A DNA stretch of 64,000 nt from Escherichia coli (lineage in GTDB: Bacteria; Pseudomonadota; Gammaproteobacteria; Enterobacterales; Enterobacteriaceae), in assembly GCF_003334385.1 (NCBI RefSeq), contig NZ_QOWN01000019.1. One strand, given 5' to 3'. The notes under the pieces are model-generated. The model ran no database searches and was not told the DNA's origin. It saw only the letters and a list, made by a program, of their open reading frames with translations. This document shows, piece by piece, positions 14,895-18,349 of the stretch. Positions within the stretch are counted from its first letter, which is position 1. Each line of letters opens with the position of its first letter. The translations under genes were made by a program, and so were the position numbers.

Positions 14895-15046
14895 TGTTAA
14901 TCCTTAATAACCTTTTTATTCTTTGCCACGGGTTCCGTGGCGGGAGATTATGCCGCGTGAACATGAAGATTATTCCTGGGAATACTCGGAAATTTGTAAG
15001 TAATATTTAACTGCTCAATACATCTAACCTTTCAGGAGTCTTCGGT

Positions 15047-17380
15047 TTGGCCAACTCATCCTCACGATATTCCGTTCTGACTGCCGCCCATTGGGGGCCC
15101 ATGCTGGTTGAAACCGACGGCGAAACCGTGTTTAGCTCGCGTGGCGCGTTAGCCACAGGAATGGAAAACTCCTTGCAGAGCGCGGTTCGCGACCAGGTTC
15201 ACAGCAATACGCGGGTACGATTTCCAATGGTGCGAAAAGGCTTTCTTGCGTCACCGGAAAACCCGCAAGGCATTCGTGGGCAGGATGAATTTGTTCGCGT
15301 GAGTTGGGATGAGGCGCTGGATCTTATTCACCAACAACATAAACGCATTCGTGAGGCTTATGGTCCGGCATCGATTTTTGCTGGTTCCTACGGCTGGCGT
15401 TCAAACGGCGTGCTGCATAAGGCCTCGACATTATTACAACGCTATATGGCGCTGGCAGGCGGTTATACCGGGCATCTGGGGGATTATTCGACCGGCGCGG
15501 CACAGGCGATCATGCCGTATGTCGTGGGTGGTAGTGAAGTTTATCAACAGCAGACCAGTTGGCCGCTGGTGCTGGAACATAGCGATGTCGTGGTGCTGTG
15601 GAGTGCTAACCCACTCAATACGCTGAAAATTGCGTGGAATGCATCCGATGAGCAGGGGCTTTCTTACTTTTCTGCACTGCGTGACAGCGGGAAAAAGCTG
15701 ATCTGCATTGATCCAATGCGATCGGAAACCGTCGATTTCTTTGGCGATAAAATGGAGTGGGTGGCACCGCACATGGGCACCGATGTTGCGCTGATGCTGG
15801 GGATCGCCCATACGCTGGTGGAAAATGGTTGGCACGACGAAGCGTTTCTGGCGCGTTGCACCACAGGTTATGCCGTCTTCGCCTCTTATTTGCTGGGCGA
15901 GAGTGACGGAATAGCGAAAACCGCCGAATGGGCAGCAGAGATTTGTGGTGTTGGCGCAGCGAAAATCCGCGAGCTGGCGGCTATTTTCCACCAAAATACC
16001 ACCATGCTGATGGCAGGCTGGGGAATGCAGCGCCAACAGTTTGGTGAGCAAAAACACTGGATGATCGTCACGCTGGCAGCAATGTTGGGGCAAATCGGCA
16101 CACCCGGCGGCGGTTTTGGTCTTTCTTACCATTTTGCCAATGGTGGTAACCCCACGCGGCGTTCTGCGGTGCTCTCTTCCATGCAGGGCAGCTTGCCGGG
16201 TGGCTGCGATGCGGTGGATAAAATCCCTGTTGCCCGCATTGTTGAAGCACTGGAAAACCCTGGTGGCGCATATCAACACAACGGTATGAACCGACATTTC
16301 CCGGATATTCGTTTTATCTGGTGGGCGGGCGGTGCCAACTTTACTCATCATCAGGATACCAATCGCCTGATCCGTGCCTGGCAAAAACCGGAGCTGGTGG
16401 TGATCTCTGAATGCTTCTGGACGGCGGCGGCAAAACACGCGGATATCGTTCTGCCTGCGACTACCTCTTTTGAGCGTAATGATCTCACCATGACCGGTGA
16501 TTACAGTAATCAGCATCTGGTGCCGATGAAGCAAGTGGTGCCGCCACGCTATGAAGCGCGTAATGATTTTGATGTTTTTGCCGAGTTAAGTGAACGCTGG
16601 GAGAAGGGCGGTTATGCACGTTTTACGGAAGGAAAAAGTGAGCTGCAATGGCTGGAAACGTTTTATAACGTTGCCCGACAGCGCGGGGCAAGCCAGCAGG
16701 TTGAATTGCCGCCATTTGCTGAGTTCTGGCAAGCCAACCAGTTAATTGAGATGCCGGAAAACCCGGACAGCGAGCGGTTTATTCGCTTCGCTGATTTTTG
16801 CCGCGATCCGCTGGCGCATCCGTTAAAAACCGCCAGCGGCAAGATTGAAATCTTCTCACAGCGTATTGCCGATTACGGTTACCCGGATTGCCCTGGGCAT
16901 CCAATGTGGCTGGAGCCGGACGAATGGCAGGGCAATGCCGAACCAGAACAGTTGCAGGTACTTTCTGCCCATCCGGCGCACCGCCTGCACAGCCAGCTGA
17001 ATTACAGTTCTCTGCGCGAATTGTACGCGGTGGCAAATCGTGAGCCTGTCACCATTCATCCTGACGATGCCCAGGAGCGCGGCATACAAGATGGCGATAC
17101 TGTTCGGTTGTGGAACGCACGCGGGCAAATTCTTGCCGGAGCGGTCATTAGCGAGGGAATTAAACCTGGCGTGATTTGCATTCACGAAGGGGCATGGCCG
17201 GATCTGGATTTAACCGCTGACGGTATTTGTAAAAACGGCGCAGTGAACGTGCTGACCAAAGATCTCCCCAGCTCGCGGCTGGGGAATGGCTGTGCGGGTA
17301 ATACGGCGCTGGCATGGCTGGAAAAATACAACGGTCCGGAACTGACACTTACAGCGTTTGAACCACCGGCCAGCTCATAA
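15047..17380 (+). CDS. bisC: Biotin sulfoxide reductase, molybdopterin oxidoreductase (777 aa), TTG start
   Basis: Track ORF; codon at 15047-15049 is TTG; DMSO-reductase family sequence. Confidence 0.9.
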
Positions 17381-17789
17381 TCCATGTGGGTAGTTGGGTT
17401 TCATCCTGCCATGCGCAATCGACAATGTGAAAACCCTGTGCCTGGTAAAAATTTATCGCCGGTTGATTTTTTTGATAAACCTCCAGCATCAGGTGGGGAT
17501 GGCGCTGCTGCACATACTGCATCAGCGCCTTACCAATACCGCGCCTGACGGCCTTCGGTGCGACAAACATCGCTGCCAGAAATCGGCCTTCCATAATGCT
17601 GACAAAACCGAGAAGCTTACCGTCTTCTTCCCAGACCCAGTTTTGCGCGTTGGCAAGATAGGCATCCCGCACCAGCGGAATGCAGTCACGCCAGTAATTC
17701 GCTTTTATAAAGGGATGCCCCCAGGTTGTACTTTCCAGCCACAGTTCGAGGATCGCGGGGAGTTCTGAACGTTGCGCTTCCCGAATCAT
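17349..17789 (-). CDS. yiaC: GNAT-family N-acetyltransferase (146 aa)
   Basis: Track ORF; 3' end overlaps the bisC 3' end convergently by 32 bp. Confidence 0.88.
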
Positions 17790-18349
17790 GGTTTATTTCC
17801 CGGATAGCAACAGCAGCCAACCACATGATCATTCACCAGCCCACATGCCTGCATAAAGGAGTAACAGATTGTGGTGCCGACAAACTTAAAACCACGTTTT
17901 TTCAGTGCCTTAGATAGGGCGTCGGAGGCGGACGTAGATGTGGGAATTTCGCTCAACGTTGTGGCTTGTGTCACCTGTGGCTGATGATTTACAAACGACC
18001 AGACAAAGTCGACAAACGGTTCGCCGTTCTGTTCCATTTGCAGGTACGCCCGCGCATTACCAATAATTGCCTGAATTTTCCCTCGATGGCGGATAATCCC
18101 GGCGTCCTGTACCAGTCTTTCGACATCCTCTTCCTGCATTGCTGCGACCTTCACCGGATCGAACTGATGAAAGCAGGCGCGATAGTTTTCGCGTTTTTTG
18201 AGGACGGTGATCCACGATAATCCAGCCTGCTGCCCTTCAAGGCAGATCATTTCGAACAGTTTTTTACTGTCAGTTTCAGGCACGCCCCACTCATTATCAT
18301 GGTAGGCAATATAAAGCGGGTCCTGACTCACCCAGCCGCAACGTTCCAT
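17786..18349 (-). CDS. tag: 3-methyladenine DNA glycosylase I (187 aa)
   Basis: Start MERCGWVSQDPLYIAYHDNEWGVP (complement of 18347-18349); Cys-rich C-terminus; 4-nt overlap with yiaC start; track ORF extension to 18586 rejected. Confidence 0.92.
   Translation of the reverse strand: MERCGWVSQDPLYIAYHDNEWGVPETDSKKLFEMICLEGQQAGLSWITVLKKRENYRACFHQFDPVKVAAMQEEDVERLVQDAGIIRHRGKIQAIIGNARAYLQMEQNGEPFVDFVWSFVNHQPQVTQATTLSEIPTSTSASDALSKALKKRGFKFVGTTICYSFMQACGLVNDHVVGCCCYPGNKP

Follow-up and report, generated by a model that had tools for sequence, protein, structure and literature searches.

The 64,000-nucleotide (nt) stretch of DNA analyzed here, which we call the window, is part of an Escherichia coli chromosome, and its positions 14900-18000, which are 100% identical to strain 300709, contain two convergent genes that run into each other tail to tail: bisC, which encodes biotin/methionine sulfoxide reductase, and yiaC, which encodes a GNAT lysine acetyltransferase. 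The last 32 base pairs (bp) of the two genes are shared, and we consider it very likely that they form a genuine, ancient, dual-coding overlap of two unrelated housekeeping genes, one that is kept by protein need and is no regulatory device. The features at the junction are as follows.

15034-15049, + strand: ribosome-binding site and start of bisC, with AGGAG at 15034-15038 and TTG at 15047-15049; the same start is given in RefSeq.
15047-17380, + strand: bisC coding sequence, 777 amino acids, TTG start, stop TAA at 17378-17380; from the list of open reading frames and RefSeq.
17349-17789, - strand: yiaC coding sequence, 146 amino acids, ATG start, stop TAA read from 17351 to 17349; from the list of open reading frames and RefSeq.
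17349-17380, both strands: convergent dual-coding overlap, 32 bp, encoding BisC from L767 (part) onward on the + strand and YiaC from I137 (part) onward on the - strand.
17786-18349, - strand: tag, encoding 3-methyladenine DNA glycosylase I, the upstream gene in the tag-yiaC operon; from the RefSeq annotation.

A first-pass annotation of this DNA, made from the letters alone, had placed a 32-bp convergent overlap at this junction, and its coordinates are borne out by the list of open reading frames, by the sequence and by the RefSeq records of two strains. For strain 300709, the RefSeq ends of both genes match exactly. For K-12 MG1655, which differs from the window by a single mismatch and no insertions or deletions over 6501 bases around bisC and yiaC, the ends are again identical (yiaC 3713652-3714092 on the + strand and bisC 3714061-3716394 on the - strand; a MG1655 coordinate x corresponds to window position w = 3731441 - x). 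The bisC/yiaC overlap is, in other words, already part of the public annotation. On its other side, yiaC follows tag in the two-gene unit tag-yiaC, and the two genes share 4 bp where tag stops and yiaC starts. There are 10 convergent pairs annotated in the window, eight of which have spacers of 29-278 nt and two of which overlap.

The ends of both proteins deserve scrutiny, as does the unusual start of bisC. The TTG start had also been proposed in the first pass, and the evidence for it as annotated is good. The AGGAG motif precedes it by 8 nt, the frame is closed behind it by a TAA at 15026, and the next in-frame ATG is codon 19, which falls downstream of the conserved N-terminal HWG motif. 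This Shine-Dalgarno arrangement, TTG with (C)AGGAG, is kept in all 10 taxa that we compared, from E. coli to Kosakonia, with no ATG before HWG in any of them. At the other end of the protein, an alignment of about 95 C-terminal columns from 29 homologues, down to 42% identity and with BisC or TorA as source names, has in common the tail ..EKYxGxxPx(L/V)TAFxPPxxx, and all but one of the homologues terminate no more than about 3 residues from where the E. coli protein does. By this alignment, the bisC stop is ancestral, with no extension. Full-length YiaC homologues outside E. coli have 146 or 148 residues, and the E. coli paralogue YjaB, for which there is a solved structure (PDB 2KCW), has 147. 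By these comparisons, the lengths of both BisC and YiaC are typical of their families.

Could one of the two stops nevertheless be wrong, such that the genes do not truly overlap? Misannotation does lie behind many long overlaps in databases, among them convergent pairs with an extended 3' end (PMC2478687). We give this explanation next to no probability, and it is refuted by the comparative data. The junction is identical in MG1655. Of 5426 complete E. coli genomes, 5421 carry its 91 nt at an identity of at least 95% and have both genes annotated across them. Beyond these genomes, there are 59 related loci in which yiaC converges on bisC, and the overlap is 32 bp long in 33 of them, 38 bp long in 26 and absent in none. 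These loci come from Escherichia species, Salmonella, Citrobacter, Enterobacter, Kosakonia, Lelliottia, Pseudescherichia and metagenomes; about 45 of them were added by scanning metagenome contigs with a DNA pattern derived from the overlap. A scan of a genome collection with YiaC peptide patterns, which proved too strict, returned 5 Escherichia loci, and the wider taxa were reached through protein matches and contigs. In the five other Escherichia lineages, the stop positions are identical to those of the window. The 32-bp form is also found in Salmonella, Citrobacter amalonaticus, Enterobacter ludwigii, a Pseudescherichia-like contig and one metagenomic relative, and the 38-bp form in Kosakonia, Lelliottia and a further metagenomic relative. 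Both stops are thus conserved across genera, and the suggestion of the first pass that a sequencing or annotation correction moving either stop might undo the overlap did not hold. The artefact explanation also runs counter to the family-typical lengths of the proteins and to the purifying selection in both frames that is described below. Taken together, the taxonomic distribution indicates that the overlap predates the divergence of Escherichia, Salmonella and Enterobacter.

The flanking gene order eptB-yhjX-yhjY-tag-yiaC><bisC-yiaD is likewise conserved. The tag/yiaC junction differs by genus: in Escherichia it is the 4-bp overlap ATGA, with a Tag of 187 amino acids, and in Salmonella, Citrobacter and Enterobacter (loci L007-L009, positions 4001-4023) it is a 23-bp overlap, with a Tag of 193 amino acids, which means that the tag stop has moved and the yiaC and bisC stops have not. 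Low-identity fragments of BisC (P0182, P0152 and P0178) were considered as outgroups and rejected, as bisC, tag and their neighbours are each broken into several short open reading frames there; the corresponding low-identity BisC/YiaC relatives (loci L018, L019 and L020) are most simply explained as frameshift-ridden assemblies of the same locus. As a separate observation, one E. coli strain, BE104 (NZ_CP040643.1, host given as 'not applicable'), is without bisC; the match to the junction starts at 17341, which is 8 nt past the end of yiaC, and leaves yiaC intact while the dual-coding region has lost its bisC context.

Within the overlap, codon position 1 of one gene stands opposite position 1 of the other, position 2 opposite 3, and position 3 opposite 2, and conservation alternates between the two frames. 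Over 17349-17371, it is the conservation of the BisC residues L-T-A-F-(D/E)-P-P-A that dominates; over 17370-17381, it is the YiaC segment T-W-I-M-x-W, with the last two BisC residues being variable. TWIMxW is the last conserved segment of YiaC and would correspond to the final beta-strand of the protein. In the short YiaC tail within the overlap, W140, Q144 and T145 are conserved. The yiaC stop is itself the complement of BisC codons for Leu-Thr, with CTT-A giving TAA and, in Enterobacter, CTC-A giving TGA. Where BisC encodes the same Leu as CTG, CTA or TTA, this stop disappears, and YiaC runs on for 6 nt to the next complementary TAA, which ends it at 148 residues; this accounts for the 38-bp variant. 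In most of the 38-bp lineages, the replacement stop again lies opposite CTT-AC (Leu-Thr).

The synonymous sites of the two genes carry a signature of dual coding. Among 11 diverse taxa, third-position entropy inside as opposed to outside the overlap is 0.62 versus 1.10 bits for bisC and 0.18 versus 1.16 for yiaC. For BisC codons whose amino acid does not vary, the third base is also invariant in 3 of 7 codons inside the overlap (GCG, TTT and GCC) and in 0 of 56 outside it (Fisher p = 0.0009). These three frozen bisC third bases are the second codon positions of YiaC T145, Q144 and W140, a coincidence that argues that the YiaC tail is translated and partly constrained. When synonymous diversity was scanned along the full genes in 7-codon windows (49 sequences for bisC and 55 for yiaC), the overlap was the absolute minimum in both. 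Additionally, when 32-nt windows were slid across 630 nt around the overlap, just 8 of the 598 equalled or exceeded it in conservation, and the best conserved of them starts at 17351, almost wholly within it. Judged by these patterns, both frames are under purifying selection in the overlap. We therefore hold that what very probably preserves the overlap is the need of each protein for its residues there: the C-terminal motif of the BisC family, LTAF-D/E-PPA, is written on one strand, and the end of the last conserved segment of YiaC with its tail on the other.

How does this junction compare with overlaps that are already known? Huvet and Stumpf counted 75 convergent overlapping pairs in E. 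coli (PMC4161906), and Palleja et al. reported that 7% of the overlaps between well-characterised genes are convergent and that long overlaps are at times genuine in this orientation but in no other (PMC2478687). Overlap lengths of 2 modulo 3, termed 'phase 1', are reported to be favoured in nature and to make up about half of convergent overlaps once those of 4 nt are set aside (bioRxiv 10.1101/2025.11.07.687268). With shared 3' bases, genuine stops and purifying selection in both frames, bisC/yiaC belongs to this class. Convergent prokaryotic overlaps (Rogozin et al. 2002, as cited in PMC2478687; PMC2478687; PMC4161906) resemble bisC/yiaC in sharing 3' ends, in being shorter than 60 bp, in the favoured phase, in their conservation among relatives and in the reduced synonymous variation of the shared stretch. 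There are differences as well. Long convergent overlaps are mostly kept only in very close species (PMC2478687), whereas that of bisC/yiaC reaches deeper, through several enterobacterial genera, and neither BisC nor YiaC shows a visible extension beyond the length usual in its family. The bisC/yiaC overlap is real, conserved and ordinary; it is in the commonest phase, and it is already known both in the annotation and in a catalogue of overlapping transcripts.

If there is no spacer between the genes, what becomes of their transcripts? The first pass had reasoned that there is no room for terminators and that the transcripts must overlap in antisense, and this reasoning stands in part. Since there is no intergenic DNA, full-length bisC and tag-yiaC messenger RNAs (mRNAs) are complementary over at least 32 nt, so the overlap of transcripts is required by the geometry of the genes; termination does occur, at least for tag-yiaC, within the partner gene, where a Rho-termination region lies in bisC. 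The following feature is relevant here.

17070-17348, - strand: untranslated 3' extension of tag-yiaC, antisense to bisC, C-rich and G-poor (rut-like), with the Rho peak at about 17097.

This Rho-termination region is listed by Adams et al. (2021, supplementary file 2) at MG1655 3714344 (+), antisense to bisC; the numbers of reads upstream and downstream of it are 90 and 23 without bicyclomycin and 60 and 112 with it, for a Rho score of 7.3 and p = 5.5e-14 (PMC7815308). In the window, the site corresponds to about 17097, which is 252 nt past the yiaC stop and within bisC. The ratio of C to G is 1.4-1.7 across most of the first ~280 nt past this stop, as expected for Rho loading. The tag-yiaC 3' end thus has the two hallmarks of a Rho-dependent terminator, namely a bicyclomycin-sensitive drop and untranslated, C-rich, G-poor RNA upstream of it. 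Rho suppression of antisense read-through, as described in PMC7815308, is likewise bicyclomycin sensitive, located within a convergent gene and preceded by C-rich, G-poor RNA; tag-yiaC differs only in that its read-through starts within the partner coding sequence instead of in a spacer.

For bisC, about 1 kb of + strand sequence beyond the stop contained nothing terminator-like in a terminator scan. A run of T residues at 17466-17476 was considered as an intrinsic terminator of bisC and rejected, as no G+C-rich stem lies ahead of it. The + strand is C-rich 120-320 nt downstream of bisC, and we infer that the bisC transcript may have a Rho-dependent end in this stretch. In this picture, each mRNA would run, untranslated, into the antisense of its partner for lack of a spacer; tag-yiaC read-through is ended by Rho about 250 nt into bisC, as the published data show, and bisC read-through would end in a similar, Rho-dependent manner in the C-rich stretch downstream of its own stop.

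A transcript overlap of this kind raises the prospect of a functional excludon, in which the complementary 3' regions would make the expression of bisC and of tag-yiaC mutually exclusive through colliding polymerases, RNase III cleavage of the paired mRNAs, or both. The published set of 165 convergent excludons of MG1655 names the pair, with transcript overlap in at least 50% of 58 RNA sequencing samples (PMC12288877), tag-yiaC transcription enters bisC in antisense (PMC7815308), and the overlap is conserved across genera. We nonetheless regard this explanation as improbable. Any pair with overlapping coding sequences is almost bound to be listed, and the conservation is fully accounted for by the constraint on the two frames. 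Classical excludons combine an overlap of long untranslated regions with demonstrated reciprocal regulation, whereas the overlap of the bisC and yiaC transcripts follows from the geometry of the coding sequences. Moreover, equivalent Rho regions are found antisense to dppF (3702288 +) and to yiaF (3718677 +) (PMC7815308), at window positions of about 29153 and 12764, where the convergent neighbours are yhjV and ghrB and the spacers are 29-49 nt. Since Rho-limited read-through also occurs at yhjV>dppF and ghrB>yiaF, it is a local norm, not specific to the overlapping pair, and the overlap of coding sequences seems to add nothing obviously special to it. The low read counts (90 per 800 nt) mean that collisions should be rare, and no functional link is apparent between a sulfoxide reductase and an operon for DNA repair and acetylation. 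A literature search on yiaC and antisense found nothing beyond these reports. Antisense interference between two weakly expressed units is physically possible and probably incidental; the coupled expression of the two operons that had been suggested in the first pass is possible but unsupported.

The new element of this analysis is a pair of conserved hairpins, one embedded in each gene.

17264-17286, either strand: hairpin A, a 9-bp, G+C-rich, palindromic stem, UUCCCCAGC/GCUGGGGAG, in bisC codons L740-N747.
17496-17534, either strand: hairpin B, a 17-nt inverted repeat with the core GGCGCUG.CUGCA / UGCAU.CAGCGCC, in yiaC codons 86-98.
Locus L141, about 255-305 nt from the yjaB start codon (yjaB coding sequence 2681-3124): hairpin of the paralogue yjaB.

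Hairpin A lies 63 nt past the yiaC stop, and on the - strand it is followed by AUCUUUGGU. On that strand it folds at -18.5 kcal/mol (z = -2.85), with 6 G-C pairs among its 9 and a tail, AUCUUUGGUC, in which 5 of 8 bases are U, and it passes a simple terminator scan; the tail is set by codons for Thr-Lys-Asp. Among 36 distinct sequences, 86% of the cells are paired, with little variation and with covariation no better than in controls slid along the alignment, and 4 of the 9 pairs are forced by the amino acid sequence. The surrounding BisC residues 735-746 are the second most synonymously constrained stretch of the 777 codons (0.29-0.36 against a mean of 0.65 and a standard deviation of 0.11). 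The stem pairs the codons CCC and GGG with each other, both of which are rare in E. coli.

Hairpin B lies 116-154 nt past the bisC stop and folds at -23.9 kcal/mol on the + strand (z = -3.5) and at -23.5 kcal/mol on the - strand (z = -3.3). Most of 50 distinct sequences fold at this site, with inner stems that include UGCA/UGCA, UGAAC/GUUCA, UUGAC/GUCAA and CUGGA/UCCAG. Across the same number of distinct sequences, the 13-bp helix is 79% paired, with two-sided changes in 5 of 13 pairs; double changes occupy 41 cells as compared to 14.8 in shuffled alignments (0 of 500 shuffles reach 41), and the covariation is 0.156 as compared to at most 0.106 in slid controls. Where one arm changes nonsynonymously, synonymous sites of Val and Leu codons on the other follow. 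The stem is in part a by-product of coding, as CAG-CGC (Gln-Arg) reads exactly GCG-CTG (Ala-Leu) when reverse complemented. RNAalifold found no consensus structure for hairpin B, the size of the loop and the register being variable.

What might these hairpins be? We think that both are probably selected nucleic-acid structures, a judgment that draws on alignments of related, protein-coding sequences, which are not independent. One explanation is that they are embedded 3'-end elements that terminate the tag-yiaC and bisC transcripts or protect their 3' ends after Rho termination and trimming; the 'missing' terminators would then have moved into the partner coding sequences, which is compatible with, and would extend, the explanation that we favour for the overlap. 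Both hairpins are 60-150 nt past the stop of the partner, hairpin A is terminator-like, retained in most of its 36 sequences and strongly constrained, and hairpin B has the more extreme z-score and covaries beyond its controls. Other points speak against it. Adams et al. list no Term-seq 3' end at hairpin A, with the caveat of low expression, and none at hairpin B. Bicyclomycin raises read-through beyond hairpin A (counts of PMC7815308), which means that this hairpin does not terminate efficiently in E. coli. Good U-tracts are missing from both hairpins, the U-rich tail of hairpin A being dictated by its codons, and the amino-acid-forced pairs and unremarkable covariation of hairpin A add to the doubt. 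The asymmetry between G.U and A.C mismatches mildly favours the bisC-sense strand for both hairpins, with a small bias and conflicting results, and for hairpin A the bisC-sense strand is the translated one. The yjaB hairpin, which occupies codons homologous to those of hairpin B, is more stable on the mRNA strand, and hairpin B may for this reason be a feature of yiaC/yjaB mRNA that is unrelated to bisC; the RNAalifold result provides no support for hairpin B either. On balance, we view the embedded-element explanation as possible and clearly short of likely.

Bidirectional intrinsic terminators are similar to hairpins A and B in having palindromic, G+C-rich stems that can form on both strands; unlike those terminators, the hairpins lie within coding sequences, at distances of 63 and 116 nt from the stops, and have neither flanking A- or U-tracts nor mapped 3' ends. 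The junction itself does not provide a bidirectional terminator, as there is no intergenic DNA and the hairpins near it have no flanking A/U tracts. An Rfam search of 16800-18000 on both strands returned no match with E <= 1.

We return to our preferred explanation, an overlap kept by protein need, against which several points must be weighed. The pattern used to query the metagenomes lies inside the overlap, and lineages with a diverged junction would be missed by it. A search with full-length BisC listed only relatives of at least 82% identity, and no outgroup came to light in which bisC and yiaC are adjacent yet do not overlap. The curated Term-seq 3' ends of Adams et al. include none on either strand of MG1655 3712900-3714699, leaving the bisC 3' end unmapped. 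Lastly, hairpins A and B show constraint beyond protein coding, and a view of the junction as purely incidental leaves them unexplained. A bolder proposal is that the spacer was lost and that the stem-loops that form or protect the 3' ends of both units were written into the partner coding sequences by synonymous and co-varying codon choice; we consider this more doubtful still than the embedded-element explanation. If true, the locus would be a compact, evolutionarily stable instance of DNA put to triple use, as code for protein, as antisense untranslated region and as RNA structure, and if the hairpins prove to be functional 3'-end elements, there would be a general lesson on how bacteria cope with a lost intergenic terminator region. 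The hairpin pair embedded in the partner coding sequences is the only element here that might repay further work.

For the overlap itself, the significance is more practical. The annotated ends of bisC and yiaC and the TTG start are confirmed, with little significance beyond housekeeping. In genome engineering, 17349-17380 should be treated as dual-coding, since deleting or recoding one gene alters the other. The junction is also a clean and deeply conserved teaching example, in which constraint alternates between antisense frames and a stop codon is 'borrowed' from the partner, as the complement of its codons for Leu-Thr.

Several smaller observations accompany these results. Codons 122-131 of yiaC (17397-17426) have the second-lowest synonymous diversity in that gene (0.31-0.36 against a mean of 0.58); this patch is 17-46 nt past the bisC stop and contains the invariant CTCCTGCC at 17404-17411, and its constraint could reflect either a part of the bisC 3' untranslated region or simply Trp/Cys-rich coding. 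In bisC, codons 169-176 (about 15551-15575) form another patch of low synonymous diversity, with a normalised entropy of 0.30 against a mean of 0.65 in 49 sequences. The other overlapping convergent pair in the window consists of ysaE, which encodes a small protein, and hokA, which encodes a type I toxin; these genes overlap by 24 bp at about 43000-43150, and they too are present in the published excludome list.

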